Part shown: positions 2,446-63,239 of the stretch, one piece after another | How the letters are laid out: each line of letters opens with the position of its first letter | Position numbering within the stretch: the stretch's first letter is position 1 | Source of the DNA: Terriglobia bacterium | GTDB lineage: Bacteria; Acidobacteriota; Terriglobia; UBA7540 | Direction of reading: 5' to 3' | NCBI GenBank assembly: GCA_035501695.1 | Contig: DATJVT010000240.1 | Coordinates: 1,389 to 65,388 of the forward strand | Length of the DNA stretch: 64,000 nt | The notes under the pieces: generated by a model | Seen by the model: only the letters and a program-made list of their open reading frames with translations | The model's database searches: none | What the model was told of the DNA's origin: nothing | Made by a program: the position numbers and the translations under genes

Positions 2446-2505
2446 CAGGGGTCAGGGATGGGGGCCTAGGGAAAAGATAAGCCGCCCCGAACCCCTGACC
2501 CCTGA
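2446..2505. repeat. Heptamer-arm hairpin element E1 (GGGGTCA/GGGATGG/GGGCCTA/GGGAAAA versus CCCCGAA/CCCCTGA/CCCCTGA)
   Basis: Period-7 arrays at 2448-2475 and 2485-2505 are reverse-complementary. The element fills the whole rapZ-ROK spacer and starts 3 nt after the rapZ stop in minus-strand sense. Confidence 0.75.
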
Positions 2506-2508
2506 TTC

Positions 2509-3396
2509 CTATCTTCCAATGTCCCGATGCAATACCTTGGCCTTGTAGCCTTCGTGGACCAAAGCGTCTGCCACTGCCTCGGTCAGGAAAACCGAGCGGT
2601 GCCTTCCGCCCGTGCAGCCGATGGCAATCGTCAGATAGCTCTTCCCTTCCCGGACAAACTGCGGGAGCAGGTAGAGGAGCAAGTCCATCAGCCGGCTCAT
2701 GAACTCGTGGGTTTGTGGGTACGAGTCCATGAAGCGCCTCACGCCCATGTCGCGTCCGGTCTTGTTTTTCAGCCGGGGAACATAGTTGGGATTGGGCAGG
2801 AAGCGCACGTCGAAGACGAGGTCGGCATCCAGCGGGATCCCGAAACGGTAGCCGAATGAGACCGTTGAAATCAACATCGACTGGCGTGCTGCCATGCCGC
2901 CGAAGCGGGTTTGAATCAGGTCGCGCAGTTCATGAACGTTGAGCCGCGTAGTGTCAATCACCACGCTGGCAAGCTGGCGCATGGGCTTGAGCAACATGCG
3001 CTCCAGGCGAATTCCTTCGCGCACCGGCAAGTCTCGTCCCAACGGGTGTGGTCGCCGGGTTTCCTCGAAGCGCCGGATCAAGGCCTTATCCGAGGCTTCC
3101 AGAAAAACCAGGGAAGGCCGCAGGTTGGCGCGCGTCAGGTCGCGATAGAGCGTGGGAAGCTGGCTTAAGGCCTCGCCACCGCGAATGTCGACCACAGCGG
3201 CAGCACGGTCCATGCCGTTGCCCCCCCGCTGGCACATTTCTCCGAACTTTGGAATCAGGTCAATGGGGAGATTGTCAACGCAGTGGTAACCAAGGTCCTC
3301 AAAAGCCTTTAAGACGGAGTCCTTCCCGGAACCACTCAAGCCGGTGATGAGCACGAATTGTTTCGTGCGCTTGTCCGCGGTGGCTTTCTTCTTCAT
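2509..3396 (-). CDS. rapZ: RNase adapter protein RapZ (YhbJ/YvcJ family P-loop NTPase)
   Basis: 295 aa with Walker A GLSGSGKDS near the N-terminus and conserved ...IAIGCTGGRHRSV... near the C-terminus. Confidence 0.9.
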   Translation of the reverse strand: MKKKATADKRTKQFVLITGLSGSGKDSVLKAFEDLGYHCVDNLPIDLIPKFGEMCQRGGNGMDRAAAVVDIRGGEALSQLPTLYRDLTRANLRPSLVFLEASDKALIRRFEETRRPHPLGRDLPVREGIRLERMLLKPMRQLASVVIDTTRLNVHELRDLIQTRFGGMAARQSMLISTVSFGYRFGIPLDADLVFDVRFLPNPNYVPRLKNKTGRDMGVRRFMDSYPQTHEFMSRLMDLLLYLLPQFVREGKSYLTIAIGCTGGRHRSVFLTEAVADALVHEGYKAKVLHRDIGR

Positions 3397-3563
3397 GGGG
3401 AAGTTTACAGCCCGCCGTCCTTCTTCCGGCGTCAGGGGGGATTATGAATGAGGAAGCGGCAATAATGAAGAGGATTTATGTGGGACGAGTCCGCCGTGCA
3501 CACTGCGGGAGGGTGGCCGGGGTGCAGACCGGTGCTCCCCGGCCACTCGCCTTGGCAAACCCA

Positions 3564-4409
3564 CTACACGTTCAGCTTCTGAAGGTACGGGACGCTGGCT
3601 TGCATCAAGTCCCAATCCATTTCGACAAAATAGTTCTGGATGCCCCCCGTTTTGGCCGCGGTGAAGAGTTTGTTCCAGTCGATGGAGCCCGCTCCCATGG
3701 CCACGATCTTCTTCTGGTCGTTCGACCAGTCCACGAGATGGAGCGAAATAAAGCGGCCGGGATACTTGGTCAGATAGGTGGCCGCTTCATAGCCGAGGCT
3801 GATGACGGCCACTTGAAACTGCATCTTGACCAGCGTCGGATCCAACGCCTTCATCAGCTCGTCATAGATCAGCACGCCATCGATTTCCCTGAATTCAAAG
3901 TTGTGGTTGTGGAACCCGAGCTGAATGCCGGCCTTTTGGGTTTGTTCGCCGAGCTTGTTCATCTCGCCGGCCGCTTGTGTCCAATCCGCCATGGGAGCGT
4001 CATGCCGCAGCGCAAAGGTCGAGACGATCATCTGCTTCAGACCCAACTCCTTCGCAAATGCGATTCTATCGTCAAGGCTTTCCTTAAGCTCCTTGAACTG
4101 GAAGTGACAACTCACGCAGCCCAATCCCGCCTCCTGGATGGCTTGACGGATTCCTGTGGCTTTAAGGTCGGCCAGCCGGCCAAAGTCGTTCTTCCCATAG
4201 CTGAAGGGCGAGCACATCTCGATCATCCGGTATCCCCCCGCGGCAATCTGCCGGAGAGTACCCGCAAAATCCTTTCCGATCGATTCCCGCAGGGGATAGG
4301 TCTGACACCCGATGGGCATTCCCAGCGGACTGGCTTTAAGGCCCATCGCCGCCAAGGCCACGCCCGTGGCGCTTCCATAAAGAAACTGCCTTCTGGATAA
4401 TGTCTGCAT
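3564..4409 (-). CDS. Sugar phosphate isomerase/epimerase (xylose isomerase-like TIM barrel) with Tat signal
   Basis: ORF 3564..4586. The internal ATG at 4409 gives MQTLSRRQFLYGSATGVALAAMG, a twin-arginine signal. The remainder is AP-endonuclease-2/TIM-barrel-like. Confidence 0.8.
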   Translation of the reverse strand: MQTLSRRQFLYGSATGVALAAMGLKASPLGMPIGCQTYPLRESIGKDFAGTLRQIAAGGYRMIEMCSPFSYGKNDFGRLADLKATGIRQAIQEAGLGCVSCHFQFKELKESLDDRIAFAKELGLKQMIVSTFALRHDAPMADWTQAAGEMNKLGEQTQKAGIQLGFHNHNFEFREIDGVLIYDELMKALDPTLVKMQFQVAVISLGYEAATYLTKYPGRFISLHLVDWSNDQKKIVAMGAGSIDWNKLFTAAKTGGIQNYFVEMDWDLMQASVPYLQKLNV

Positions 4410-4422
4410 ATCTAAACTCCTT

Positions 4423-10073: not shown

Positions 10074-11888
10074 TCACTTGGACGGTTTGGCCCCCCGCGC
10101 GCGTGCCGCGCCGGACTTGTCACCGGCGGCTTCGAGCGCCCTTGCCTCGGCATCATAGGCCTGGAAATAGCTCGGATCAACCTCTCGCGCGGTGTGAAAC
10201 TCTTCCGCCGCCTGATTGGGTTGGTTAAGCTTCAGCCAACAGGTCCCGAGAAAAAATCGCGCCTCGACATCTTCCGGAGTGATCTGCACGACGCGCATGA
10301 AGTATTTCGCCGCCAGGTCATAATGGCCCTGCGGAAAATAGAGAACGCCGAGCGCCCGATAGGCCGGGCTAAGGCCGGGGGCGAGACGGACGGCCTTTTG
10401 GAAGTAGGCGACGGCGTCATTGGGGTGGCCCTTCATCAGGGCGATACGGCCCAAGCCCAGGTCGCATTCGTAGATCATACCTGCCGTGGGGTTGAAGCTC
10501 GCCTGGTTCAGCCGCAGGGCGGTCTTGTATTCCCGCTCCGCCCCGTCGAGGTCGCCTTTTTGGTTTTCCAGAATCGTTCCCTGATACATGTGCGCCAGGG
10601 CTGAGTCCGGAGCGGCTTTCGTGGTGTGGCTCCAGAGCGCCGCGTCATCGTACCAGTTGGGGATATTGCGACAGTCCTGGATGGTCCACAACCCCAGCAG
10701 CACCACTAAAGCCGGCGCCAGCCCGCGCAAGGGGGCGCGGCGTGGCCAGAGCCGGGGCGCCAGATCCAAGCCCAGGTAAGCCAAAGTGAGGCACGGCCCG
10801 ATGGAAGGTATGTACGAGAACCGGTCCGCCATGGGAAGGCCAATGACCTGCCGGACGTCCAGGCAAGGCAAAAGCGTCAAAGCCCACCAGACGATGAGGA
10901 ATCCGCATACCGGCTGCCGCCTGCGCAGGAGGAAAGCCGCCAGTATGCCCATCAACACGAGCCAAGGCCAGGGTGAGCGCAGACTGGCCGACAAATCAAA
11001 TGTACGGGCCAGGTTCAAATCGACAGGCCAAAAGAAAAGCCGGGCGTGGTTGCCAACGATTCCCAGGGCCGTTCCGGCCAGGTGCAGCGGGGATTTGCCA
11101 AGGGGCGCAGCCGCTGAGAAGTGGCCGAGTGCCGCGGTGCGCGCCACGATGTATCCGGCCACCGCCAGCGCGTAAGGCGTCCAACGCACGATACGGCGGG
11201 ACCACGGTTGCGCGGACCCGAGGAAAAACCAATACGCGATGACCAGGAGCGGAAAGCTGAGCGCCGTCTCTTTAAAGAAGAGGGCAGGGAAGTATACCAA
11301 GGCCGCCAGCGCATTGCGGGTGATGGGGTGGTCGCCTTTCTGCTCGGCCCACAGGAAGCAGGCGAATCCCCCCACCATGAAAAAAGCCGCCCCAGCGTCG
11401 GGAAGGGCGGAAACCCACGCCAACACTTCCACGTGCAAAGGGTGCAGAGCCCAGAGTAACGCTCCCGTGAAGGCGGCCAAATCGTTCCCCAGCAAGCGGC
11501 GTCCCAGGAGGAAAAGCAACCACACGGTGGCCGCGCACAGGGTGAGATGAAACAGATGAAAAACCTGGGGGTTCAGCCCGGCCAGCCGATCCAGCGCCCA
11601 GTAACAGAGGAATTGGAGTGGCCGGTAATAATTGGCGTGCGTCGCGGGTCCGCGAAAGGGATCTATGGCGCCCTGGAAGATCTGGCGCCAGTAGTGCCGT
11701 GTCGCCAGATAGGGATTGAGAAGAATCTGCGGAATGTCGTCAAAGACGAAACTTGCGGCCAAGGCGCGCCGGTAAACCAGGAAGGTAACAAGGACCAGCA
11801 ATCCGCCGGCGCAGCGCGGATGCCGGCCCACAAGTTCGTTCCCGTGTTTCAGCCAAACTGCCGGTTCGTAATTCCTCTCCACCTGCAC
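10074..11888 (-). CDS. TMTC/DUF1736-like polytopic membrane protein with C-terminal TPR repeats (putative GT-C glycosyltransferase), paralog 1
   Basis: 604 aa. Contains the motifs FVFDDIPQILLNPY, YYRPLQF and ALHPLHVEVLAWVSA, about 10 TM segments, then TPR repeats. The GTG start at 11888 directly abuts the stop of the upstream paralog. Confidence 0.8.
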   Translation of the reverse strand: MQVERNYEPAVWLKHGNELVGRHPRCAGGLLVLVTFLVYRRALAASFVFDDIPQILLNPYLATRHYWRQIFQGAIDPFRGPATHANYYRPLQFLCYWALDRLAGLNPQVFHLFHLTLCAATVWLLFLLGRRLLGNDLAAFTGALLWALHPLHVEVLAWVSALPDAGAAFFMVGGFACFLWAEQKGDHPITRNALAALVYFPALFFKETALSFPLLVIAYWFFLGSAQPWSRRIVRWTPYALAVAGYIVARTAALGHFSAAAPLGKSPLHLAGTALGIVGNHARLFFWPVDLNLARTFDLSASLRSPWPWLVLMGILAAFLLRRRQPVCGFLIVWWALTLLPCLDVRQVIGLPMADRFSYIPSIGPCLTLAYLGLDLAPRLWPRRAPLRGLAPALVVLLGLWTIQDCRNIPNWYDDAALWSHTTKAAPDSALAHMYQGTILENQKGDLDGAEREYKTALRLNQASFNPTAGMIYECDLGLGRIALMKGHPNDAVAYFQKAVRLAPGLSPAYRALGVLYFPQGHYDLAAKYFMRVVQITPEDVEARFFLGTCWLKLNQPNQAAEEFHTAREVDPSYFQAYDAEARALEAAGDKSGAARARGAKPSK

Positions 11889-13691
11889 CTATTCCCCTTG
11901 ATGGCCGGCCAACAATCGCCGGACCTCCGCTGCGCCGGATTTGTCACCGGCGGTCTCCAGGGCCATGGCTTCTGCCATGTAGGCTTCCCTGAACTCCGGG
12001 TCCACCTCGCGCGCCGCGCGGAATTGTCCCGCGGCTTCCCGCGGCTTGTCGAGTTTCAACAGACAGGTACCGAGGTAAAACCGGGAGCCCATTTCCATGG
12101 GCGTGGCCCGCACCGCCCGGCGGAAATACTCCGCCGCCCGGGCATAGTCGCCGCGGGGAAAGTAATACGATCCCAAAACATTGTAAGCGAAGCTGAAATT
12201 CGGCAGCAGGTGGACGGCCTTATTGAAGTAGTCGAGGGCCTCGGCGTCCCGGCCCTGGAGCTGTGCGACTTGGCCCAGGCCGATGTATGAATCGTAATCC
12301 ACGGGCAAAATTGGACGGATGCTCTGCGCGTTCAACTCCAATGCCGTACGGAATTCGCGTGCGGCGCCCTCCAGGTCGTGATCACGCAGTTGCAAGGTCG
12401 CTCCATGGGATACGTGCGCCAGGGCGGCGTTGGGAGAAACCCGGAGCGAGTACTCCAGCAGCGTGTCGTTATTCCCCCAGCGCGGCATGGCGCGCAAAAT
12501 CAGGCTCGCCCAGAATGCCCCCAGCACCAGCAACGCGCCGAGGACCGCCGGAGCAAGAACCAACATCGGGTAGCGCCGCGGTGCAACGACGAAAGCCAGG
12601 TATCCGAGCGCCAGACAAAGGCCTACGGACGGCAAATAGGAGAATTGATCCTCCACAAACGGAAAACTTAGCTGGCGATAATCGAGGCAAGGGAGGAGCA
12701 GGACTAGCCACCAGAGCACCAGGAAGCTCAAAAGGGGTTGGCGCTTTCGCCCCGCCACCGCCAGCGCGAGAACCAGCAGCACGATCCAGGGCCAAGGCGA
12801 CTCCAGGCTCGCGGCCAGCCGAAAATCGCGAAATTCGGTAAGGCCAACGGGCCAGATAAAAACCTTGGCGTGCTCCCCCAATAAGCCGATCGCCACCCAG
12901 GCTACCCGCGGCTTGAACTCATGAAAAAGCGATCTCCCTGCGAAACGGCCCATGGCTGCCACACGGATCGCCGCGCACGCCGCCATGGCCGTCGCGTAGG
13001 GAAGCCAGTGTAGCGCCCGCATTGTCCACGAAACTCCTCCGGAAAAACAGAACCAATAAGCCAGGATAAGGAGGGGAAAGGTGAACGCGAGTTCCTTGCA
13101 GAACAACGCTGGGGCAAAAACCGCCGCCGCCAGGATGTGATGCCGGAGGGCCGGGGGTGATTGCGCTTCCGCCCGCAGGAAGAACCAGAATCCCAGCAGA
13201 CAGAAAAACCCGCAGGCAATGTCCGGGATCGCGGACGCCCATGCCACCGGCTCAACGTGCGCGGGATGCAGCGCCCACAGCAATGCGCCCCCGAATGCCG
13301 CCAGGTCGGTGGGGAGTAGCTTCCGTCCTACCTGGTACACCATGAATACGGCCAGGACGTACAGGAAGAGCTGGAAGAAATGGTAGCCGACGGGATTCAG
13401 TCCCCCCACCCGGCAGATCAGCCAGAACATAAAGATGCCAAGAGGGCGGTAATAACTGCTTTCCCCCGCGTGCCCGAGGAACGCCCACATCGGCGTGGTA
13501 AAAATATCTTTCCACAGGTGCGGGTTCTTGACATAAGGGTTCTGCAGGATCAGAGCGGTGTCGTCCAGGACATAACCGCAAGCCAGGACGCCACGGTAGA
13601 AAACCACGGCCGCCAGGATGAGCAACCAGTTCGCCGCGGCGGGGTATTTCTTGAGAAGACCATCCAGACGATTTAACAAGGTTCCATTCAC
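11889..13691 (-). CDS. TMTC/DUF1736-like membrane TPR protein, paralog 2
   Basis: 600 aa with YVLDDTALILQNPY, YYRPLGI and ALHPAHVEPVAWASA. The C-terminal TPR tail ...AEAMALETAGDKSGAAEV parallels that of paralogs 1 and 4. Confidence 0.8.
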   Translation of the reverse strand: MNGTLLNRLDGLLKKYPAAANWLLILAAVVFYRGVLACGYVLDDTALILQNPYVKNPHLWKDIFTTPMWAFLGHAGESSYYRPLGIFMFWLICRVGGLNPVGYHFFQLFLYVLAVFMVYQVGRKLLPTDLAAFGGALLWALHPAHVEPVAWASAIPDIACGFFCLLGFWFFLRAEAQSPPALRHHILAAAVFAPALFCKELAFTFPLLILAYWFCFSGGVSWTMRALHWLPYATAMAACAAIRVAAMGRFAGRSLFHEFKPRVAWVAIGLLGEHAKVFIWPVGLTEFRDFRLAASLESPWPWIVLLVLALAVAGRKRQPLLSFLVLWWLVLLLPCLDYRQLSFPFVEDQFSYLPSVGLCLALGYLAFVVAPRRYPMLVLAPAVLGALLVLGAFWASLILRAMPRWGNNDTLLEYSLRVSPNAALAHVSHGATLQLRDHDLEGAAREFRTALELNAQSIRPILPVDYDSYIGLGQVAQLQGRDAEALDYFNKAVHLLPNFSFAYNVLGSYYFPRGDYARAAEYFRRAVRATPMEMGSRFYLGTCLLKLDKPREAAGQFRAAREVDPEFREAYMAEAMALETAGDKSGAAEVRRLLAGHQGE

Positions 13692-13698
13692 CTGGCTT

Positions 13699-15984
13699 TC
13701 ATTTTGAAGATGGCTTTACCGCATCGGCGTGGCCTCGTGCTTCGTACATTTCGGCCAGTCGGGCCAGGAGCGCCGCATCATTCGGAGTCAGTTCTACCGC
13801 CTGCTTTTGATACTCGATGGCGCGCTCGACGTCGCCCTGGCTCAGCCAGACTCGCGCCCGCCCCGCCGCCACACGCGCATAAAATGCGCTTCCCCACCCA
13901 GTGCCCCGAGGGTAGGGACTGAGGCGGTCCGCCCTCGTGAAGGCCTCCAGGGCCTCCCGGCGCCGTCCCATCTGGGCATAAAGCTCTCCCAGTTCGAGGT
14001 ATCGGTCACCCGCCTGAAAGGAGAGTTCGGCGGCATGGGTTAGAGCTCGCGCCGCCTCTTCATCGCGCCTCGTGCCGGCATAAAGCCGGCCCAGCAGATA
14101 CCAGCCCATGTCCGTCGGGCGAAGCTCGACGGAGGCGCGAAATTCCTGCTCCGCCAAATCGGGGCGATTATAAGCCTGCATGATCTGGCCGAGGATCAAA
14201 TGCAGATTACTGTCGTCGGGAAAAATCCTCGCGGCAGATCGCAGGTCCTCAAGAGCTTCCTGCCCCCGGCCGAGCACGTAAAGCACCGACCCGGCATTGG
14301 CGTAAAAGTTGTAGAGTTCCGCTGTGCGGCGCGCGCCTGGGCCCGTCGCCGCCGCGGGCGGAGGGTCAAGCCGGACCGTCGCACAATCGATCTGGAGGCG
14401 GTTGATCCAAGCGGCATTCTCCGGCCGGTTGCGGACGAAGATGGCCGCCACCTCATCCAGGTAGACGGGACGCCAGGCGCTGCTAGCGCAGAATTGTTGG
14501 AGCGGAAAGTTCCCCAGGCCTCCGTAACGCGCTACCGAAACCAAAATCGTGTTGATGTTGCGAAGCCCGGCTTCCTGCTGCCATTCCGGCGACTCCGGCT
14601 CCTGCCGCATCAGTTCCTGTTGGTGGGAAAGGAAGGCGGCTCCAAACGGGATCAGCCTGCCATCGGCATAATCGGGGTACCCAGGACCGATGCGCCAAGT
14701 GAGATAACCACCCAGGTTATAATCATTGAAGATATTACGCGGCAGGTGTTCCCGAAGCAGGAAAGCGGTGGCCCGCTCGGGATACCACCAGGATACGCCG
14801 GGGCCAAAAAGGGAAAGCTGGCCCGCGAACAGATAATAGTGGTTCCAAATCAGGTCTCCGCCTCGTATCAATACCAGCAGTAGCGCTCCTCCCAGCAGGA
14901 GCAGTCGCACCAAACCCGCGGATCCCAGTGAGCCTTGGCCGAGACCCGCGTCGATGCGGTGCCGCGCCTTCGCAGCCCATTCCGGCCATGCCAGACCCGA
15001 AAAAGTCGCCCCTCCCAGGGTCACGGTCAGGCAGGCGAACAGACCCTCGTAACGCAAATGAGCAAGCGATAGATAAGTGGCCGCCGAGAGGATGACAGCC
15101 GCGCCCAACTGTTTTCGCCAGAGCAAGAGCAGGGCCGCAGCGACCGCCGCACCAGCCAACCACCAGTAACTGCTGTCCGGATCGTGCCAACTAAAAGCGC
15201 CGCTTAAGTTGGCGAGGCTGGTGGACCGCCCCAACCAGTGGGAGATGAAACCACCCAGGTCTCGCATGCTTCTTTCCTGGCGGACAATCGCCACATAGAT
15301 GCGCGGCCCCCAGGGATTCACCAAGGTTGCCATAAGAGTTGCGAGAAGCCAGGGAGAGGTCCCACGCAGGCGATCCCAAGCTGCGCTTCGGCGGCCGGCG
15401 AAGGGCATCTCCAGCAACTCGAGCAGCACATAGGCCCCCATAAGCGCCAAGCCCGCAATAAAGCCCAGGTGCAGGTTCACCCAGGTCAGCATGAGCACAG
15501 GAAGTGGCCAGAGGGGGGCACGTTCGTCCTGGAATCGCCGCCACAAGATGGCCAGAAAAGCGGCAAAGAGGACCGTGGTAAACAACTCGGCGCGTGTGGT
15601 CGTAGCGTAACTGACAGCCGGCACGGCCACCACGGCCAGGGCGGCCGTACAAGCGCTGTTCCGTCGCAAAAGCAGGGCTGTAGTTGCCACGCAGGCTATT
15701 GCACTCAGCCAGGAGAGCGCGGCGAAACCACCGACCGCATAAACGACGTACAGCAACACGCCGGAAAAAGGCGGGTAAACCCATTCCTTTCCCTGTGCGG
15801 TATAGGAGAAAACATCCGCGCGAGGAATCGGATGGTGTTGGAGAAGATATCGCCCCGTGGCAAGCTGCCAACCCAGATCGAAATCCGCCACCGTCCGTAA
15901 CCCCGCGAGCAGGGCATAGAACAAGGCCAGGACCATCAGCGCCTTGACAACATACAGGCGCAGCTTGGCAGACGACAATTCCAT
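13699..15984 (-). CDS. Large polytopic membrane protein with C-terminal TPR repeats (different N-terminal family; GT-C-like, function unknown)
   Basis: ORF 13699..16017; the start is ATG 15984 or ATG 16017. It has more than 10 TM helices and DFDLGWQLATGRYLL near the first loop. The C-terminal third is TPR-rich (...LGRLYAGTRRDEEAARAL..., ...ERAIEYQKQAVELTPNDA...). Confidence 0.65.
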   Translation of the reverse strand: MELSSAKLRLYVVKALMVLALFYALLAGLRTVADFDLGWQLATGRYLLQHHPIPRADVFSYTAQGKEWVYPPFSGVLLYVVYAVGGFAALSWLSAIACVATTALLLRRNSACTAALAVVAVPAVSYATTTRAELFTTVLFAAFLAILWRRFQDERAPLWPLPVLMLTWVNLHLGFIAGLALMGAYVLLELLEMPFAGRRSAAWDRLRGTSPWLLATLMATLVNPWGPRIYVAIVRQERSMRDLGGFISHWLGRSTSLANLSGAFSWHDPDSSYWWLAGAAVAAALLLLWRKQLGAAVILSAATYLSLAHLRYEGLFACLTVTLGGATFSGLAWPEWAAKARHRIDAGLGQGSLGSAGLVRLLLLGGALLLVLIRGGDLIWNHYYLFAGQLSLFGPGVSWWYPERATAFLLREHLPRNIFNDYNLGGYLTWRIGPGYPDYADGRLIPFGAAFLSHQQELMRQEPESPEWQQEAGLRNINTILVSVARYGGLGNFPLQQFCASSAWRPVYLDEVAAIFVRNRPENAAWINRLQIDCATVRLDPPPAAATGPGARRTAELYNFYANAGSVLYVLGRGQEALEDLRSAARIFPDDSNLHLILGQIMQAYNRPDLAEQEFRASVELRPTDMGWYLLGRLYAGTRRDEEAARALTHAAELSFQAGDRYLELGELYAQMGRRREALEAFTRADRLSPYPRGTGWGSAFYARVAAGRARVWLSQGDVERAIEYQKQAVELTPNDAALLARLAEMYEARGHADAVKPSSK

Positions 15985-16088
15985 GAAACGTCCCGAGGCT
16001 CGCCGGTCCGCCCGCATTTCGCAGGGAGGAACTTCACTTCCGGGGCCCGACAGCCCGCACTATACACCCCTGGAAGCGTCCCCACGCA

Positions 16089-17870
16089 CTAATCTGCCTT
16101 AGGGGTCGATGCCCGGACGCGCGCCGCCTCCGCCTTGTCCCCCGCCGCATCGAGTGCCCGCGCCTCCGCCTGGAAGGCCTCCCGGTAAGTTGCATCCACT
16201 TCGTGTGCCGCATGGAATTGCCTGGCGGCCTGGCTCGGTTGGCCAAGTTTCAGATAACATGTTCCCAGATAAAAGCGAGTTTCCGGTTCGTTGGGATTCA
16301 AAGCCACCGCCTTCTCAAAGAATCGGCTGGCCTGGGCGTAGTCTGCGCGCGGGAAATAGACAAGGCCGAGAGATTTGTAGGCGAGGCTGAAACCGGGTAC
16401 GGCGCGAAGTGCCTGGTTGTAATCGTCGATGGCCTCTTGCGTCCGGCCCTGGAAGCTCGCCACTTCACCCAACAGCACATTGCACTCCGCAGTAATCCCG
16501 GGCAGGGGCCGCGCGCTGGCCGCATTGAGCTTAAGCGCCATGCGGTACTCGGCCGCCGCCGCATCCATCTTCCCGTCCCGCTGCTGGAGCAGGGCGCCGC
16601 GCAGCATGCGGGCCACCGGCGAATCCGGCGAGGCGACATAGGCCTGATCCCACAGGGCGACATTATCGCGCCAGTGCGGGACGGTGCGCACGTCCTGCAC
16701 TACCCAAAGCGCCATCAGGACGCCCGCCGCTGCAACCAGAGCGGGCGCGGTTTTCGGGTGGGGCACGCGGCAGGGTAGCCATACCAAGGCCATGTATGCA
16801 AGGGCCAAGCACGGGCCCACCGTGGGCAGCAGCGAGAAGCGATCCGCCACCGCCGAGTTCACCTGGCGGAAGTCCAGGCAGGGCAACAGCGTCACTCCCC
16901 ACCAGATGATCAGGAATCCCGGCAAGGGCTGCCGTTTGCGCATGAGTACCGCAGCTGCGAGAGCCACAAGCGCCACCGCCGGCCACACCGAATGCACGCT
17001 TTTGGCCAAATCAAAGGAACGGAATAACGACAGGTGGGCCGGCCAGAAGAAGAGCCGGGCGTGCTGGCCCAACAGTGCCACCGCCACCACCCCCACCCGC
17101 CAGAGAGGATGCAGCAGGTCCGGCGCTTCCGAAAAACGGCCCAGCACCGCAATGCGAATAGCGGCATAGACCGCCACGATGCCCGCGTAAATCAATCCCT
17201 GCAATATTCTGCTCTTCCAGGGATGCCTTCCAGGAAAGTAAAACCAATAGGCCAAAATGAGGATGGGGAAGGAAAGGGCCATTTCCTTGAAAAACATGGC
17301 GGAAAAGAATGCAAGGGCAGCCAGGAGGTGGTGGCCCACGCCCAGGCCGGAGGACTTCTCTGCTCGCAGAAACAGAACGAAACCGAGCACATAGAAGAAT
17401 GCCGAACCCAGGTCGGGGAGGGCCGAGATCCAGGCAACGGTCTCCACATGCAAAGGGTGCAAAGCCCAAAGCAGAGCTCCCACAAATGCCACCAGGTGGC
17501 TCGGCAGGAGTTCGCATCCCAGACGGAAAACCAGCCATACGGCGGCGGCATAAAAGAGCAGCATAAAAAGGTGGAAGATGACCGGGTCGGGACCCTTCAC
17601 GCGATACAAAGCCCAGTAAACGATGAACTGCAAGGGCCGATACATATTGTCGTGCTGCGCCGGACCGCGAAATGACCAGACTGACCCCGTAAAGATGCGC
17701 GTCCAAAGGCCGGCATTGTGCACGTAAGGGTTTTCGAGAACCTGAGGGATATCGTCGTGCACCAGCAGGTTGGCAAGTGTTCCGCCAAAGACTACATATG
17801 TCGTGAGAAACAATGACCCGCCCGCCAGACGCGGGTGCCTTTGCAGCCACTGATTGCACTGGTCAAGCAA
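16089..17870 (-). CDS. TMTC/DUF1736-like membrane TPR protein, paralog 3
   Basis: 593 aa with LVHDDIPQVLENPY, MYRPLQF, ALHPLHVETVAWISA and the tail ...AEARALDAAGDKAEAARV. Confidence 0.8.
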   Translation of the reverse strand: MLDQCNQWLQRHPRLAGGSLFLTTYVVFGGTLANLLVHDDIPQVLENPYVHNAGLWTRIFTGSVWSFRGPAQHDNMYRPLQFIVYWALYRVKGPDPVIFHLFMLLFYAAAVWLVFRLGCELLPSHLVAFVGALLWALHPLHVETVAWISALPDLGSAFFYVLGFVLFLRAEKSSGLGVGHHLLAALAFFSAMFFKEMALSFPILILAYWFYFPGRHPWKSRILQGLIYAGIVAVYAAIRIAVLGRFSEAPDLLHPLWRVGVVAVALLGQHARLFFWPAHLSLFRSFDLAKSVHSVWPAVALVALAAAVLMRKRQPLPGFLIIWWGVTLLPCLDFRQVNSAVADRFSLLPTVGPCLALAYMALVWLPCRVPHPKTAPALVAAAGVLMALWVVQDVRTVPHWRDNVALWDQAYVASPDSPVARMLRGALLQQRDGKMDAAAAEYRMALKLNAASARPLPGITAECNVLLGEVASFQGRTQEAIDDYNQALRAVPGFSLAYKSLGLVYFPRADYAQASRFFEKAVALNPNEPETRFYLGTCYLKLGQPSQAARQFHAAHEVDATYREAFQAEARALDAAGDKAEAARVRASTPKAD

Positions 17871-18045
17871 GAGCCAACCTCATATCAAGAATCTATACAA
17901 TGACGGCGCCCGGTGGCGGCACCGGAGCGGTCCGGATGAAACCATCGAAAAATCCGGGGTGATTATAACTACATATGACAAGGCAGCAAAGGCACTTTGG
18001 TACCGGGTGCTATCGCGTGTCGCTTCCGCCGGGCGGCTGGGGCAG

Positions 18046-18054
18046 TGCTATAAT
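18046..18054 (+). promoter_or_regulatory. Candidate extended -10 promoter (TGcTATAAT) upstream of the plus-strand membrane protein gene
   Basis: gTGcTATAAT sits at 18046-18054 in the 310-nt divergent intergenic region. No good -35 was seen. Confidence 0.3.
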
Positions 18055-18180
18055 TCCGCGCCCGAACCACGAGGGCACTGGGACCCCAGGCAGGGCAGAA
18101 CGTAAGCTCGCCCGAGGTCAGGGATCCGATTCCCCCCTGGGGATGGAAGCAGGCCGCCGTCCGTCATAGTATCGAGATGC

Positions 18181-43020: not shown

Positions 43021-43026
43021 TTTTGG

Positions 43027-45929: not shown

Positions 45930-46020
45930 GGGATACGGGGTACGGGAAAGAAACCGTAGCGCGACCGGTTCTTTAGGTTCGCTACTATTCTGGCTCCTGA
46001 CTTCTGACTCCTGACTCCTT
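45917..46020 (+). repeat. Heptamer arrays E9 (GGGAACG/GGTTAAG/GGATACG/GGGTACG versus CTCCTGA/CTTCTGA/CTCCTGA/CTCCTT; ccmA-ccmB spacer)
   Basis: The left array spans the ccmA stop codon (45927-45929). The right array ends 1 nt before the ccmB ATG. The arms are only patchily complementary (GGG:CUC/UCC every 7 nt). The centre has a GTAGCG...CGCTAC stem. Confidence 0.6.
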
Positions 46021-46698: not shown

Positions 46699-46852
46699 TC
46701 GTTTGTCACTGGTCATTTGTCCGTTGTCAGTTGTCAGTTGAGCCTCACCTTCCAAGCCGGGATACTCGGTCGTAGGTGCGCGCGGCCAAGCAATCAAATC
46801 CGATGCAGGGCAACGGACCACTGACAACGGACCAAGGACAAATGACTAAGGA
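46698..46852 (+). repeat. Heptamer-arm hairpin element E10 (six GTCnnTT units versus six CnAnGGA/TGA units; ccmB-ccmC spacer)
   Basis: Left arm: GTCGTTT/GTCACTG/GTCATTT/GTCCGTT/GTCAGTT/GTCAGTT (46698-46739). Right arm: CAACGGA/CCACTGA/CAACGGA/CCAAGGA/CAAATGA/CTAAGGA (46811-46852). Perfect helices GTCATTTGTCC:GGACAAATGAC (11 bp) and GTTGTCAG:CTGACAAC (8 bp). Confidence 0.85.
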
Positions 46853-49282: not shown

Positions 49283-49535
49283 TTTGCTTTCTCCCCCCCG
49301 GTATCGCGCTATAAAGATATGCCGTTCAGCCCGGGACATGTCGAAGTTAAGGGTCGGCTTCATAAGTATCGCAGGGCGGTGACGTGGCTCCCTTCGAGGA
49401 CCCGAGTACCGCGCACTGCGGCGGATATCTTATACGCAAACTCCAGCTCCGACCAAATGGTCTTCACCTTCCTTGGCTTCGCCTTGATGCCAAAGGCCTC
49501 CAATAGTAAACTTGAAATCGGAGACCTCCACTCGT

Positions 49536-50639
49536 ATGCCAACCGATTACGACCGCAGACCCAATCCTGAGGTGCTCCTCAAGCAGTTGGACGCACAGGA
49601 CGAGCAACTCCAACACGAACGATTGAAGGTCTTTCTGGGGTATGCCTCCGGAGTGGGGAAATCCTTTCGCATGCTGGATGAGGGCCGGCGCCGGCGCGCT
49701 CGCGGACAGGATGTGGTGATTGGAGCAATCCAGCAGAAACTGCCGCCCGAACTCGAGCACCTGCTGGAAACCATGGAGGTCGTTCCCCTTAAGAAGATTG
49801 GCGGGGGCGAGGCCATGGATGTTGAGGCGATTCTGCGCCGCCACCCGCAGGTCTGCCTGGTTGACGGGGTAGCGTATAACAATCCCCCGGGCAGCAAGAA
49901 TCCCACCCGCTGGCTGGATGTCGAGGATCTCCTGGCGGCCGGAATCGTCGTGATTACCTCCGTCAACCTCCAGCACATTGAAGAGCGGCGTGCTGCCGTG
50001 GAGAGAATCACCGGCAAGCGCGTAACGGATACCGTGCCGGAGCGATTTCTTTACAACGCCAACGAGATTGTCATTGTCGATGTGCCGCCCGAACTCTTGC
50101 TGGAGCGGGCCGGAACGCCCTCCGCCGCGGATCCGGCGGTAGCAGATACACCCCGGCGCCTTTCCGCTTTACGGGAGATCGCCTTGCTGCTGGCTGCCGA
50201 GGTGGTTGACCGGCAGCTTGAGGACTATCTTCTTGCCCACGGGATCGAGCCGCAGTGGGGCACCCAGGAGCGCATCCTCGTGTGCCTGACCCGCGGCGCC
50301 AATATCGCCGCCATGCTGGCCAGCGGAAAACGTAACGCGGAACGTTTCCAGGGAGAACTCTTCGCCGTGTACCTCCGCGAAGACCGGTACTCTGAGAAAG
50401 ACAGGAGTAATTTGGACGAGCAACTCCATCGGGCCGGGCAACTGGGAGCGCACACTGATGTGCTGGACGGTTATGACCCCGTGGAGACACTCATGGATTA
50501 CGCGCGCGTTCATCGGGTCACGCAAATCTTTGTCGGCCATCCCAGCCGTGTGCATTGGTGGGATCGTTTTCTGGGCGGCCCGCTGGACCGGCTTATCCGG
50601 GCTGCGGAAGGGATCGACGTGCGGCTGTTTCCGCACTGA
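49536..50639 (+). CDS. KdpD N-terminal sensor domain + USP-like domain protein (no transmembrane or kinase part), copy 1
   Basis: ORF 49512..50639. Contains LKVFLGYASGVGKSFRML (P-loop-like), ...VVITSVNLQHIE... and a USP-like C-half. It ends without a DUF4118 or HisKA domain. Confidence 0.75.
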   Translation: MPTDYDRRPNPEVLLKQLDAQDEQLQHERLKVFLGYASGVGKSFRMLDEGRRRRARGQDVVIGAIQQKLPPELEHLLETMEVVPLKKIGGGEAMDVEAILRRHPQVCLVDGVAYNNPPGSKNPTRWLDVEDLLAAGIVVITSVNLQHIEERRAAVERITGKRVTDTVPERFLYNANEIVIVDVPPELLLERAGTPSAADPAVADTPRRLSALREIALLLAAEVVDRQLEDYLLAHGIEPQWGTQERILVCLTRGANIAAMLASGKRNAERFQGELFAVYLREDRYSEKDRSNLDEQLHRAGQLGAHTDVLDGYDPVETLMDYARVHRVTQIFVGHPSRVHWWDRFLGGPLDRLIRAAEGIDVRLFPH

Positions 50640-50650
50640 AAAACGGCTTG

Positions 50651-50747
50651 CAGCTGTCAGCTTTCAGCTCTCAGCAAATACGTGGTCGTGCCAGACCGGT
50701 CACGCTTTCGCGTGGGGCTTAAAGATGACAGCTGAGAGCTAAGAGCT
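50651..50747 (+). repeat. Heptamer-arm hairpin element E11 (CAGCTGT/CAGCTTT/CAGCTCT/CAGCAAA versus GACAGCT/GAGAGCT/AAGAGCT)
   Basis: Located between the two KdpD-N genes. The arms are reverse-complementary (AGCTTTCAGCTCTCAGC versus GCTGAGAGCTAAGAGCT). The centre is about 50 nt and unique. Confidence 0.8.
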
Positions 50748-50751
50748 ACTC

Positions 50752-51903
50752 ATGGATGCCACCTCTCACAAACGCGGCAGGTTGAAAGTCTACTTGGGGT
50801 TTGCCGCCGGCGTCGGCAAGACCTACCAGATGTTGGCCGACGCCCACGAATTGGTCAAGCGGGGCGTTGACGTCGTCATCGGCTATCTCGAGCCCCACGG
50901 CCGCAAAGACACCATTGCGCAGGCCGAAGGGCTGGAGTTGATTCCACGCTGCAAAATGGAATATCGGGGAGCGGTGTTCGAGGAGATGAACATGAAGGCC
51001 ATCCTCGAACGTCATCCGGAAGTGTGCGTGGTGGATGAGTTGCCCCATACCAACGTGCCGGGCTCGACCCACTTGAAGCGCTGGGAGAGCGTGCTGGAAC
51101 TGCTGGACGCGGGCATCGACGTCATGACCACCATGAATATCCAGCACCTCGAGAGCCTGAACGACCAGGTCAGGGACATGACCGGGGTACGGGTGCGCGA
51201 GACAATTCCCGACTGGGTCATGAAGCAAGCCGATGAAGTCGTCATGGTGGACCTTACCCCGCAGGCTCTCATCAATCGCATGGAGCGCGGCGTGGTCTAC
51301 CCACCGGAAAAGGCTCAGCGCGCCTTGCAGAATTTCTTCAAGGAATCGACGCTCGTCGCCTTGCGCGAAATCGCCTTGCGGCAGACGGCACTGGAGGTGC
51401 AGATCCGCCAGGTCATCTCACCCGAATCTCCCGCCGTAGATGCCCCCCCTACGGCGGAGGCGGAGGCGAAGGAACCTGACGATTTCGGCACCCCCAATGA
51501 CCGGATTCTGGTTTACATCACCGAACATCCCTCCACGGCCATGCTCATTCGTCGCGGGCGGCGGGTGGCGGACTATCTCCAGGCGGATTGTTTTGCGGTC
51601 TTCGTCCACGACGAAATCGATTTTAATGCCCTTCCGACGCCCAAGCGCGAAGCCGTCGAGCGGCACCTCAATTTCGCGCGCAACCTGCATATTGAGACCC
51701 GGGTTCTGCAAGGCGAGGATATCGCCATCACCCTGATCGACTTCGCGCGTCTCCACAACATCACGCAGGTTTTTATGGTGCGCCCCCAATATTCTCCCTG
51801 GGAGGGATTTATCGGGCGCAATCTCATCCATCGCATCGTCCGCAACGCACGCGATATGCAGGTGACGATCGTGGCCGAACGCCACCCCGGCCGGCGCGAT
51901 TGA
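50752..51903 (+). CDS. KdpD N-terminal sensor domain + USP-like domain protein, copy 2
   Basis: 383 aa with LKVYLGFAAGVGKTYQML, ...VMTTMNIQHLESLND... and a USP-like C-half. It is a paralog of the preceding gene. Confidence 0.75.
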   Translation: MDATSHKRGRLKVYLGFAAGVGKTYQMLADAHELVKRGVDVVIGYLEPHGRKDTIAQAEGLELIPRCKMEYRGAVFEEMNMKAILERHPEVCVVDELPHTNVPGSTHLKRWESVLELLDAGIDVMTTMNIQHLESLNDQVRDMTGVRVRETIPDWVMKQADEVVMVDLTPQALINRMERGVVYPPEKAQRALQNFFKESTLVALREIALRQTALEVQIRQVISPESPAVDAPPTAEAEAKEPDDFGTPNDRILVYITEHPSTAMLIRRGRRVADYLQADCFAVFVHDEIDFNALPTPKREAVERHLNFARNLHIETRVLQGEDIAITLIDFARLHNITQVFMVRPQYSPWEGFIGRNLIHRIVRNARDMQVTIVAERHPGRRD

Positions 51904-58335: not shown

Positions 58336-59442
58336 ATGCAGAGCCTCTATCGGATTGCGGTGTTGGCGGGCGACGGGATTGGGCCCGAGGTCACGGCGGA
58401 AGCCGTGAAAGTCCTTAAGGCCATTGAGGAAATCACTGGTCCTGCCTTCCGTTTCCAAAACGGCCTGATTGGCGGTTGCGCCCTCGACCAGACCGCTTCC
58501 CCTCTCCCTGCCGAGACCATCGCGATTTGCAACAACGCCAATGCCGTTCTCTTGGGCGCCGTGGGCGGTCCGCAATGGGACACCAAGCGGCCCGAGTCGC
58601 GACCCGAGGCAGGATTGTTGCAAATCCGCCAGCGGCTGGGGGTGTACGTGAACTTGCGCCCCGCGAGAGTCATCGACGCGCTCGTCGGCATTTCCGCCCT
58701 CAAGCCCGATCGCGTGCGGGGGACCGACCTGGTGATCGTCCGCGAATTGATGGGCGGGATCTATTTTGGAAATCCCCGCGGCATCTTCGCCAAGAATGGC
58801 GAGCGTTATGGCGTCAATACGGAAATCTATCGCGAGCACGAGGTGGAGCGTGTGGCGCACCGGGCTTTCCAGTTGGCGCGGTTGCGGCGGCGCAAAGTGA
58901 CATCCGTCGACAAGGCCAATGTGTTGGAATCCTCCCGCCTGTGGCGCGAGGTGGTGACGCGCATCGGCGGCTCCTACCCTGACGTCCAACTTAATCATCT
59001 CTACGTCGATAACTGCGCCATGCAGTTGATTGACAAACCCACCAGCTTCGACGTGGTCTTGACCAACAACATGTTTGGCGACATTTTGAGCGACGAAGCC
59101 GCCATGCTCACGGGTTCGATTGGCCTGTTGCCTTCCGCCAGCCTGGGCGAGCATTCCGCCTTGTATGAGCCGATACACGGCTCGGCGCCCGACATTGCCG
59201 GACGCAATCGCGCCAATCCTCTCGCCGCTATCGCTTCCGCCGCTCTCATGCTGCGTTACTCCCTGCACATGGAAGCCGCCGCTTCCGCCATCGAGCAGGC
59301 AATTGAGCGCATCCTGAAGCGTGGCGTGCGCACGGCCGAGATTCCCGGCAAGAATCGGCCCACTTCCACCACTCGCATGGGCGACCTCATTGCCGAGACG
59401 ACCCAAAAGATCTTGAAGTCGTCGCTGGCCAAGAGACGCTGA
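58336..59442 (+). CDS. leuB: 3-isopropylmalate dehydrogenase
   Basis: 368 aa with ...IAVLAGDGIGPEV..., ...NMFGDILSDEAAMLTGSIGLLPSASL... and ...YEPIHGSAPDIAG.... Confidence 0.9.
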   Translation: MQSLYRIAVLAGDGIGPEVTAEAVKVLKAIEEITGPAFRFQNGLIGGCALDQTASPLPAETIAICNNANAVLLGAVGGPQWDTKRPESRPEAGLLQIRQRLGVYVNLRPARVIDALVGISALKPDRVRGTDLVIVRELMGGIYFGNPRGIFAKNGERYGVNTEIYREHEVERVAHRAFQLARLRRRKVTSVDKANVLESSRLWREVVTRIGGSYPDVQLNHLYVDNCAMQLIDKPTSFDVVLTNNMFGDILSDEAAMLTGSIGLLPSASLGEHSALYEPIHGSAPDIAGRNRANPLAAIASAALMLRYSLHMEAAASAIEQAIERILKRGVRTAEIPGKNRPTSTTRMGDLIAETTQKILKSSLAKRR

Positions 59443-59531
59443 CAGCCGACAACTAACAGCCAACAATAAAGGGCCTTCCCTTCACACTCGACTGATAAGT
59501 CCCTGTCAGCTGTTAGCTGTCGGCTGTCAGC
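59438..59531. repeat. Heptamer-arm hairpin element E12 (GACAGCC/GACAACT/AACAGCC/AACAATA versus CTGTCAG/CTGTTAG/CTGTCGG/CTGTCAG) between convergent leuB and hydrolase genes
   Basis: Arms at 59438-59465 and 59504-59531 give 25 Watson-Crick pairs out of 28. The left arm contains the leuB stop codon and the right arm abuts the hydrolase stop codon. Confidence 0.85.
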
Positions 59532-61827: not shown

Positions 61828-62181
61828 GGCACACCCCTTTCGCGAGGTCTTGGCCGGAAGCCTGGGCAGCGACCCTGGGATTCATGCTTCTAACCAGCTT
61901 TATTATCACCAACATCGTTTCAAAGACTGGTTTTGACGCCATCATACCCCAAGCATCATGGCGCGGGGTTGTCCTTGCCCGCTTACCTGGCTTTCTCTGG
62001 CAAACCCGCAAAAGGATCCCACCGAATCCGGCTTTGAGGTGAGCTCCTCTCGGAGGGGGGGCAAATCTGTGCAACCTGGCCTCGCCAAACTTGTAGTCTA
62101 GTGCAGAGGCCAGGCCCTCTGTCAAGGGAAATCTCGCCAAAATTCGCAACTTTGGCTAAAAAACCGCCAATATGTCTCTGT

Positions 62182-62210
62182 CATTTCCTGCCGGCAGGAA
62201 ATGGTTTTTT
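62182..62210 (+). terminator. Orphan intrinsic terminator (9-bp stem, CCGG loop, T6 tract)
   Basis: CATTTCCTG-CCGG-CAGGAAATG is followed by G and TTTTTT (62205-62210). No annotated plus-strand gene ends here. The next plus-strand gene starts 150 nt downstream, past a possible promoter. Confidence 0.6.
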
Positions 62211-62360
62211 CGTCTGGCGCGCCGCCGCCACCCCTCGCCTGCATTTCCTTGCCGCCCCGGCTGAGATTATGTAAAAATGCTCTGTGAAGGTTGGTGAACG
62301 CGGGAACACAGTCGCGCGCGCCTTCCTGCTGGGGGCAAACCACGCATCCGAGGAGAGTCA

Positions 62361-63116
62361 GTGCATCCTGACCTTAAGGCCGTCGTCAACGTCCAGCAAC
62401 TTGACCGGGAGGTTGCGGACCTGACGGCGCAGATTGATTCCCTGCCCAAGCAAATCCATACCCTGCAATCGCAACTGGATGAATTCATGCACGATCACGA
62501 AGAGCGGAAGAAACGCCTGGCCGCCAATCTCAAAGAACGGAAAGACCTGGAAGGAGAGGTGAAGGTCATCCAGGAGAAGATCACCAAGCACAAAGACCAA
62601 CTTTACCAGGTGAAAACCAACGATCAATATAAGGCCATGCTGAAGGAGATTGCGGGAGAAGAGTCCAACATCCGCAAGATTGAGGACGTGGTCCTGGAAA
62701 GGATGATCGAGGCAGAGGACATCCAGAAGCATGTGCAGGAAGCGGCCGCGCGGCTGGACGGCGAAAAAGCGCGGGTTGCGAAGGAAATCAAGCGCCTGGA
62801 AGACGAACGCGCGAAGGACGTGGAGGAACGCGAAGGGCTGCAAGGCCAGCGGAAGCAAGTGGCCGCGGGTCTGGCCGAATCTGTCCTGGCACTCTACGAA
62901 CGCATTCGTAGTTACCGCACCGGCGCGGCCGTTGCGGAGGTCCGCGACGGCCTCTGCACCGCCTGCAACGTGCTGCTGCGGCCCCAGGTTTACAACGAAG
63001 TCCGCAGCAACAATGCCGTCTTGACCTGCGAAAACTGCAGCCGCATCCTCTTTTACCCGGAGCCGCCTCCCGAGGAACTGGCCGCAGGCGACCAGAGCGC
63101 CGGGGCCATGCCGTGA
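62361..63116 (+). CDS. COG1579-type coiled-coil protein with C-terminal C4 zinc ribbon
   Basis: 251 aa with a GTG start, a long coiled coil, then CTACNVLLRPQ...CENCSRILF. Confidence 0.75.
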   Translation: MHPDLKAVVNVQQLDREVADLTAQIDSLPKQIHTLQSQLDEFMHDHEERKKRLAANLKERKDLEGEVKVIQEKITKHKDQLYQVKTNDQYKAMLKEIAGEESNIRKIEDVVLERMIEAEDIQKHVQEAAARLDGEKARVAKEIKRLEDERAKDVEEREGLQGQRKQVAAGLAESVLALYERIRSYRTGAAVAEVRDGLCTACNVLLRPQVYNEVRSNNAVLTCENCSRILFYPEPPPEELAAGDQSAGAMP

Positions 63117-63122
63117 GAAAGG

Positions 63123-63239
63123 CAGTGGTTGGTGGGTAGTGGTTAGTGGCTAGTGCTTAGTGGTTGGGGGCTGGGTGCTGAGGACTCTCGGCTACATCCT
63201 GCGAACCACGAGCCACTCACCACTTGCCACTAACCATTG
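63123..63239 (+). repeat. Heptamer-arm hairpin element E13 (CAGTGGT/TGGTGGG/TAGTGGT/TAGTGGC/TAGTGCT/TAGTGGT... versus AACCACG/AGCCACT/CACCACT/TGCCACT/AACCATT)
   Basis: It starts 6 nt after the COG1579 stop and ends 8 nt before the RNase H ATG. A 29-position helix (63123-63151 with 63211-63239) has 24 Watson-Crick pairs, 2 G:U and 3 mismatches on plus-strand RNA. A further 6-bp helix forms between 63160-63165 and 63204-63209. Confidence 0.85.

Follow-up and report, generated by a model that had tools for sequence, protein, structure and literature searches.

Stop-codon-abutting intergenic hairpins with heptamer-repeat arms in a Terriglobia bacterium and other Acidobacteriota

Heptamer repeats in intergenic DNA first became known in 1990, as the short tandemly repeated repetitive (STRR) sequences of cyanobacteria, reportedly described in that year by Mazel et al., and their over-representation in many bacteria was noted in 2007. 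Repeats of this kind are found in a 64,000-nt stretch of DNA from an uncultured Terriglobia soil bacterium (phylum Acidobacteriota; GenBank assembly GCA_035501695.1, contig DATJVT010000240.1, positions 1,389 to 65,388 of the forward strand), the whole of which is called the window here; its spacers hold a genuine, non-random family of hairpins that abut stop codons and whose arms are heptamer arrays. In the typical element two inverted arrays enclose a unique centre; each array usually has 4-6 units, which are 7 nt long or, in one family, 8 nt long. Such hairpins are common across the phylum. They add a new phylum, and new features, to a repeat class already reported and unexplained, and are not a categorically new element.

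Among the closest described systems are the intergenic heptamers of Xanthomonas (GGGAATC) and Nostoc (GGGGAYT); 70-75 convergent inverted pairs are present per Xanthomonas genome, and most Xanthomonas repeats are transcribed, are not tied to insertion sequence (IS) elements and are not phase-variable (Rehm et al. 2015, PMC4692102). In cyanobacteria, STRR hairpins lie between hupS and hupL, with a proposed role in transcript stability or translational coupling (PMC2670836), and TAACTGA heptamers occur as direct repeats in Beggiatoaceae, cyanobacteria and Bacteroidetes (PMC4679880). Repetitive extragenic palindromic (REP) sequences and the bacterial interspersed mosaic elements (BIMEs) built from them are transcribed with their operon and act as mRNA stabilisers (PMC3116915, PMC3733652). 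Finally, an acidobacterial clade of Y1 transposases resembling the REP-associated tyrosine transposases (RAYTs) is flanked by inverted repeats, some of which carry the motif GGGGWSAS (Di Nocera et al., PMC3733652). A full-text literature search of incomplete coverage returned no description of heptamer-array hairpins for Acidobacteria.

Period-7 arrays, scanned for in the window as stretches of at least 28 nt with at least 75% self-match, number 15 against 0.1 ± 0.4 in 20 dinucleotide shuffles (about 150-fold), and in the self-match scan periods 4, 5, 8 and 10-12 show no enrichment over shuffles. Tandem Repeats Finder (TRF) lists period-7 arrays at every site at which a first-pass annotation, made from the letters of the window, had placed tandem 7-nt units; its description of the arrays as non-coding and lacking one common sequence is also borne out. 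When each locus was folded as RNA and compared with 200 dinucleotide shuffles, the ten paired hairpins that it had proposed resolved into six clear and two moderate hairpins, one weakly folding, decayed period-8 element (33334-33489) and one site made of two unrelated arrays (45917-46020), and the three arrays called unpaired gave no fold signal (z-scores, z, of -0.9 to +0.6). Array starts in the window range from 7 nt upstream of the stop codon's end to about 11 nt downstream of it, as the proposed placement at upstream stop codons requires, and the gene names, checked with NCBIfam, agree with those first given (rapZ, plsX, fabH, fabD, fabG, ccmF/A/B/C, two KdpD-N genes, leuB, efp and a CdsZ-like gene). 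A scan of the window at Rfam gathering scores, which had been suggested as a check, returned 0 matches, and no tRNAs were found either. The arrays and hairpins of the window are listed below.

2446-2505: hairpin GGGGTCA / CCCCTGA, bounded on one side by the rapZ stop (2509-2511, minus strand) and on the other by the Shine-Dalgarno (SD) sequence and GTG start of a ROK kinase gene.
25641-25682: unpaired array TTGAATG (period 7/14) in the thiC leader, minus strand; found by TRF and by the scan, z -0.9.
25956-26004: unpaired degenerate array GGGNNNN (GGGGTCA-like) at the 3' end of the open reading frame (ORF) 25995-26453, minus strand; found by the scan, z +0.6.
27935-27962: unpaired array ATCCAAA adjoining the efp stop codon; found by TRF and by the scan, z +0.1.
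33334-33489: decayed octamer-family hairpin TCATYGRN / NYCRATGA, occupying the plsX-fabH spacer; weak, z -1.9.
34497-34571: hairpin AAAGGWT / AWCCTTT in the fabH-fabD spacer; moderate, z -2.9.
36394-36495: hairpin ACGATGG / CAATCGT, 3' of fabG and 5' of acpP; moderate, z -2.8.
42859-43020: hairpin GTGATGA / CTCGTCA after the ccmF stop; -80.9 kcal/mol, z -4.3.
45917-45947: array GGGTACG overlapping the ccmA stop; found by TRF; folded jointly with the array at 45990-46019, z -0.9.
45990-46019: array CTGACTC, of the CAGGAGT family, which ends at the ATG of ccmB; found by TRF.
46698-46852: hairpin GTCAGTT / AACGGAC in the ccmB-ccmC spacer; -68.4 kcal/mol, z -5.2.
50651-50747: hairpin CAGCTNT / ANAGCTG, exactly separating two tandem KdpD-N paralogues; z -3.3.
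59438-59531: near-perfect hairpin of GCTGACA units, exactly filling the gap from the leuB stop to the stop of the convergent esterase gene; -50.2 kcal/mol, z -10.1.
63123-63239: hairpin TAGTGGT / ACCACTA after the CdsZ-like gene; -64.4 kcal/mol, z -7.1.

The hairpin at 2446-2505 (60 nt; -39.5 kcal/mol, z -5.5) lies 3 nt past the rapZ stop and 4 nt ahead of a GGAGG-N5-GTG start, and at 46698-46852 the stem base pairs the UAG stop of ccmB with the bases directly 5' of the ccmC SD (AAGGA). The upstream stop codon is often inside the first unit, as in TAGCTNT for the CAGCTNT family, in the leuB TGA contained in GCTGACA and in the ccmB TAG at 46696-46698. The arms at 59438 read GCTGACA, GCCGACA, ACTAACA and GCCAACA, opposite CTGTCAG, CTGTTAG, CTGTCGG and CTGTCAG. 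Several G.U pairs at 42859-43020 are present on the sense strand only. The arrays GGGTACG (45917-45947) and CTGACTC (45990-46019) show no complementarity, so that no hairpin forms at 45917-46020, and the arms of 33334-33489 consist of 8-nt TCATYGRN units, not 7-nt ones. The geometry of 46698-46852 and 2446-2505, together with the abutting or overlapping genes of element-free relatives, is consistent with an insert that is tolerated and closes up on itself. The CAGCTNT hairpin stands between two tandem genes (49512-51903) for KdpD-like non-kinase potassium sensors, which have the N-terminal KdpD domain only.

The survey covers 1.29 Mb, that is the window and 80 loci from species-representative genomes, of which loci L010-L060 are Terriglobia and L061-L089 mostly Pyrinomonadaceae; the FabH of the window has at most 88% identity to proteins of uncultured Terriglobia (Acidobacteriota) metagenome-assembled genomes (MAGs), many of them derived from peat. 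It contains 461 arrays, 398 of period 7 and 63 of period 8, and in comparison with block shuffles period 7 (412 vs 19) and period 8 (69 vs 3) are enriched in the 1.29 Mb, with periods 4, 5 and 10-12 at chance level. Intergenic DNA, which makes up about 17% of the total, holds 79% of the arrays. A reverse-complementary partner is present within 300 nt for 316 of the 461 (69%) and for none when the flanks are shuffled, which answers the proposed shuffled-control check of arm pairing in favour of the hairpins. The 196 hairpins have a median length of 105 nt and a median loop of 34 nt; the first arm begins a median of 2 nt past the stop codon and the element occupies a median of 73% of its spacer. 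With the fab region excluded, the density per kb of spacer is 0.71 for co-directional, 0.37 for convergent and 0.19 for divergent genes. The regular placement first described is real, but special targeting is not needed for it, because the elements fill most of spacers that would otherwise be tiny (0-60 nt in element-free orthologues).

The two arms of an element are not equivalent. The 5' arm contains more G than C in 165 hairpins against 26, in both acidobacterial classes; it is poor in C (A 0.28, C 0.15, G 0.28, T 0.29), the 3' arm is poor in G, and among distinct 5'-arm units GT exceeds AC by 69 to 18 and AGT exceeds ACT by 36 to 8. Since an inverted repeat is identical on both strands, this polarity is intrinsic to the element and carries no information on the strand used, which rules out orientation relative to transcription as its meaning. 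Base composition alone is not sufficient, because the CAGCTNT arm is the 5' one in 41 hairpins against 3 though it is slightly richer in C than in G; the same family weakens the avoidance of Rho, in which the C-rich arm would be kept from emerging first in the transcript, as the sole cause. In every family the same unit strand runs 5' to 3' toward the hairpin centre, like two telomere-like arrays fused head to head. Stem mismatches recur at the unit period across all families (lags 7 and 14, or 8 and 16), and position 6 of CAGCTNT is fully degenerate, with the arms complementary there in 36% of units against 25% by chance (for example in L107, L121 and L146), so that the stems are runs of about 6 bp split by a mismatch. 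For the polarity, the unit-period mismatches, the single octamer family and the fast turnover of the centre no earlier description was found.

The 162 heptamer hairpins are built from 104 distinct 5'-arm units, whose common core GT[C/G]A is weak (information content 3.07 vs about 2.8 bits in controls); single-linkage clustering at one mismatch or less joins nearly all heptamers and is uninformative. The octamers, in contrast, form one family, TCATTGAG, with 8.5 vs 4.8 bits, spread across many loci and genomes. Within the window the unit does differ at each locus, as first noted, but this does not hold in general: the window families also occur at non-orthologous loci of relatives, an example being the CTGACTC (CAGGAGT) family, located at ccmA-ccmB in the window and in the fabH-fabD hairpin of L012, L026, L028, L037 and L041. 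Hairpins of the same contig share units 9 times against 1.9 expected, a value above all 200 permutations. Four loci of L077, spotted by eye and then aligned, have the identical order of unit variants TTTTCAG-TTTTTAG-TTTTCAG-TTTTAAG, with near-identical loops in two of them. The recurrence of units, their sharing within contigs and these same-order copies indicate ordinary copying or dispersal; the view of the units as locus-specific does not hold, and the argument that a shared design speaks against ordinary copies is not supported. Nested hairpins, one in the loop of another, are found in L011, L014, L016, L034 and L042, and the CAGCTNT family is present on at least 120 metagenome contigs (L090-L209). 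Compound arrays also occur, in which a CAGCTAT run is directly followed by a run of another unit, CTGACGG, CTCCAGC or CCTGAAG (L100 1020-1120, L161 1946-2070, L127 58-140). Hairpins of one family stand on both sides of single operon genes in L061 (8487-14872), L077 (929-15008), L081 (8441-11094), L085 (9591-11070) and L064 (4699-6723), where the 3' arm of one could pair or recombine with the 5' arm of the next across the whole cistron.

Comparison of orthologous spacers suggests that they act as sites of gain, loss and replacement. The plsX-fabH spacer varies from 0 to 277 nt among relatives; element-free orthologous spacers measure 0-60 nt, and plsX and fabH abut or overlap there. Of 78 genomes, 36 have a hairpin in fabH-fabD, with 27 different units among them; for plsX-fabH the figure is 14 of 70 and for fabD-fabG 1 of 45. 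In genomes whose FabH is 85-88% identical to that of the window, fabH-fabD is filled by AAAGGRT, GTCCGTN, CAGGAGY or octamer hairpins; the AAAGGWT family of the window is also found at the orthologous site in L011, L013, L015, L016, L019 and L020, and the ACGATGG family lies at a roughly equal distance downstream of fabH in L012, L015, L018, L019 and L020. The plsX-fabH spacers of L010-L019 carry intact octamer hairpins of up to 266 nt and -158 kcal/mol. At closer range, L026, L027 and L028, whose flanks are 95-97% identical, retain the outer units of the fabH-fabD hairpin and have wholly different inner units and loop, and different lengths, which marks the hairpin centre as fast-changing and the stem base as stable; the centres themselves are completely different sequences of 13-110 nt. 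Between L016 and L052, at 95% identity, the difference is an indel of one 8-nt unit.

The strain set consists of nine soil-metagenome contigs (L001-L009) at least 99% identical to the window, with identical EF-P. No unit indel was found in the arrays of these nine contigs, on which ground phase-variable contingency loci are rejected. The few single-nucleotide polymorphisms (SNPs) in hairpins, among them those that disrupt base pairs at 33334-33489, break pairs or form G.U, which indicates that pairing decays in old elements; the compensatory changes that had been suggested as a check were sought here, and none was present.

In the Xanthomonas and Nostoc repeats (PMC4692102), the period of 7, the usual 4-6 or so units, the strongly intergenic location and the scarcity between divergent genes are all shared with the acidobacterial elements. 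For Xanthomonas the likeness extends further. At 0-50 bp from the stop, or overlapping it, the G-rich strand is the coding one, and immediately ahead of the following start it is the non-coding one. All pairs are convergent, in agreement with the arm polarity measured here, and length and sequence vary between close species (Xcc, Xac) with the single or paired type kept. The first-pass annotation aptly named STRR and REP/BIME elements as analogues and knew of no system with a paired design; the convergent GGGAATC pairs of Xanthomonas (PMC4692102) and the hupS-hupL hairpins (PMC2670836) are such systems. In contrast to the Acidobacteriota, with more than 100 unit types, most of them without G tracts, Xanthomonas has essentially one G-quadruplex-prone unit per genome, its paired arrays are a minority, and it belongs to another phylum; the 8-nt family, nesting and same-order dispersed copies are further differences on the acidobacterial side. 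No survey array consists of GGGAATC or GGGGAYT units, and G3 tracts are lacking in most of the 196 canonical units.

The STRR sequences likewise are intergenic tandem heptamers with several families per genome, whose inverted arrays give hairpins within operons; they are described mainly as direct arrays, and no systematic account of their polarity, pairing frequency or nesting was found. The classic units CCCCAGT, TTGGTCA and CAACAGT form no survey array, and the host belongs to Acidobacteriota and not to cyanobacteria. The TAACTGA repeats resemble the present arrays in being intergenic, with 2-6 copies in fixed orientation ending 0 to a few nt from the start codon, and are related to the GTCAGTT/AACTGAC units found here; they differ in having a single unit and in being nearly all direct repeats 5' of genes, with one inverted case reported, and the unit forms one array in the survey. 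REP/BIME elements and the REP doublets forming hairpins (REPINs) mobilised with RAYTs are also extragenic, hairpin-forming, dispersed in many copies, often dimeric and located in co-directional or convergent spacers (PMC3116915, PMC3733652). A REP, unlike the arms of tandem 7- or 8-nt units without shared head described here, is a single palindrome of 20-40 nt with a GTAG/CGTC head and a cognate RAYT. Copies of an already described REP or miniature inverted-repeat transposable element (MITE) family, the outcome that had been named as refuting the element, did not emerge: beside the REP differences just given, no target-site duplication is visible at the four L077 copies and no related IS is seen in the window, by which a MITE is rejected.

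The reading preferred here, held at about even confidence, places the arrays in the bacterial heptamer-repeat class (STRR-like), as its acidobacterial members: expanding and dispersing non-coding repeats that are tolerated only in the interval from a stop codon to the following ribosome-binding site. Arrays would lengthen by slippage, one unit per step, and their palindromy would be kept by copying between the arms (intrastrand template switching); copying would spread them to near and far spacers, and they would survive only where harmless, from the stop codon to the next ribosome-binding site in co-directional or convergent spacers. Given their position inside operons the elements are probably transcribed, and the RNA would form segmented stems of 25-60 bp in which the stop of the upstream gene and the start of the downstream one are again drawn close to each other. 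Such stems would keep coupling and, by analogy with BIMEs, probably add a structure that protects 3' ends or serves in processing.

A role at the RNA level is faintly suggested by the folding of the sense strand, which exceeds the antisense by a mean of 1.3 kcal/mol (p = 0.02), and by the excess of G.U over A.C mismatches outside the fab region (85 vs 54, p = 0.01). Several points weigh against the reading of tolerated, dispersing repeats. The signs of an RNA role are slight, as the sense gain is small, G.U and A.C mismatches are not significantly different overall (371 vs 329) and the SNPs are not compensatory. No mobilising enzyme was found, with no transposase or related IS seen in the window, and the RAYT-like Y1 transposase genes examined from Acidobacteriota have ordinary inverted repeats of 36-41 nt on either side, not heptamer arrays. 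Target-site duplication is not visible around the four aligned L077 copies, an all-vs-all BLAST of hairpin loops gave almost only orthologous or self matches, the loops being otherwise unique to their locus, and no two elements have been established as copies within the genome of the window itself. Moreover, 104 units among 162 heptamer hairpins are compatible with independent growth in place, and the reading accounts for neither the 7-nt step nor the fixed polarity.

A serious but unlikely alternative is that the hairpins are kept by selection as intercistronic RNA devices (an RNase III or other processing site, an mRNA 3'-end stabiliser or a stop-start bridge for translational coupling), with the repeat structure as a secondary trait. 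The recurrent occupancy of fabH-fabD without sequence conservation (36/78 genomes, 27 units, vs 1/45 for fabD-fabG) would be expected from it, as would the depletion of hairpins in divergent spacers, the slight folding advantage of the sense strand, the stem bases that connect a stop codon with the nucleotides immediately in front of the following SD at 46698-46852 and 2446-2505, and the overlapping or abutting plsX and fabH genes of element-free relatives; yet the element is wholly missing in many close relatives (spacers of 0-30 nt), strain polymorphisms disrupt pairs without compensation, G.U and A.C mismatches are almost equal, centres and unit families are swapped between genomes 95% identical, and selection for a plain hairpin predicts neither the 7-nt tandem design nor the fixed arm polarity. 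Intrinsic (Rho-independent) terminators, or G-quadruplex repeats as proposed for Xanthomonas, are highly improbable: the position just past stop codons, the stable GC-containing stems and the G3-4 tracts of a few units (2446, 25956) are in line with them, but most elements lie within conserved operons (fab, ccm), G tracts are missing from most units, and a T4 run follows within 12 nt of the element in just 13 of 167 cases against 9 on the antisense side, a rarity of the U tract for which terminators are rejected. It is improbable, too, that the arrays are a purely local by-product, in which intergenic palindromes expand in situ by 7-nt polymerase slippage and shared units reflect convergence and not movement; a polymerase-footprint idea for 7-nt slippage is credited to Mrazek in PMC4692102. 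Growth in place accords with the many distinct units and their weak core, the separate loop of each locus, the unit indels and gradients of unit variants along arms, and the arrays that extend into and contain the stop codon. It does not account for the four L077 loci of identical unit order and similar loops, the genome-specific unit families, the spread of the octamer family TCATTGAG over many loci and genomes, or the unrelated families found in one orthologous spacer of sister genomes and the nesting.

Movement of REPIN-like non-autonomous elements by the acidobacterial Y1 (HUH) transposases, of the RAYT type or associated with terminal inverted repeats (TIRYTs), is decidedly doubtful. It draws on the distinct acidobacterial clade of RAYT-like transposases (PMC3733652), on 3364 homologues of Koribacter aba1552, many in Terriglobales and other Terriglobia, on the resemblance of the GGGGWSAS motif of some TIRYT inverted repeats to the GGGGTCA units of 2446-2505, and on elements that are hairpin-forming, extragenic, dimeric and nested like REPINs and BIMEs. 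The two transposase loci read, L210 and L211, are flanked by GTATCAGGGCACGGCTTYAGCC without tandem heptamers beside the gene, however, and GTATCAGGGCACGGCTTYAGCC is not found in the window; GGGGWSAS occurs there 14 times against 22.7 expected, showing no enrichment, a conserved GTAG-type head is lacking, and more than 100 unit types would require many cognate enzymes. The inverted repeats of these loci are unrelated to the arrays and the window has no such gene, a comparison that covers two loci and the window. In L210 (1074-1693) and L211 (2344-3038) the Terriglobia RAYT-like Y1 genes lie within the 36-41 nt inverted repeats GTATCAGGGCACGGCTTYAGCC, and an inner pair, GGGCTTTAGCCCCTG, overlaps the gene ends. 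A last possibility, likewise improbable, is that a dedicated, polar and sequence-independent process, common to Acidobacteriota, Xanthomonas and cyanobacteria, has left the arrays behind as its footprint, which is suggested by the common unit direction, the fixed step of 7 (or 8) nt whatever the sequence and the one free position per unit. Repeated short-template synthesis at breaks of hairpin tips, followed by rejoining with filler DNA, would fit such a process, as would a protein reading single strands in a 7-nt register; if true, either would amount to a new way in which genomes change or in which RNA/DNA is recognised.

With more than 100 unit types, an octamer family, mostly paired arrays, nesting and empty, filled and re-filled sites, the Acidobacteriota provide a richer data set than the one-unit Xanthomonas repeats, and the constants (period, polarity, placement and free position per unit) can be separated from the variable sequence, which makes mechanistic models testable. 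Much of the non-coding DNA of this phylum, a dominant one in soil, consists of these elements, which are located within essential operons (fab, ccm); they will mislead the calling of gene starts and the prediction of terminators and small RNAs in acidobacterial MAGs.

Other features of the window concern the neighbouring genes. In the 440-nt leader of thiC (25550-25990, minus strand; thiC 24155-25549), no thiamine pyrophosphate (TPP) riboswitch was found at the Rfam gathering or E-value threshold, and a heptamer array (CATTCAA on the sense strand) lies there instead, 90-130 nt ahead of the start. The System I genes for cytochrome c maturation do not form one block: the ORFs 42877-43485, 43491-43943 and 43991-45268 lie between ccmF and ccmA-ccmB-ccmC. 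For the third ORF, of 425 aa, neither Pfam nor NCBIfam gives a match. The region 10074-21418 (minus strand) has a strong positive AT skew and encodes five tandem paralogues of about 600-770 aa with C-terminal TPR repeats, in whose short spacers no hairpin is present; two of them (11889-13691 and 19514-21418) have an additional N-terminal PMT_2 glycosyltransferase-like domain.

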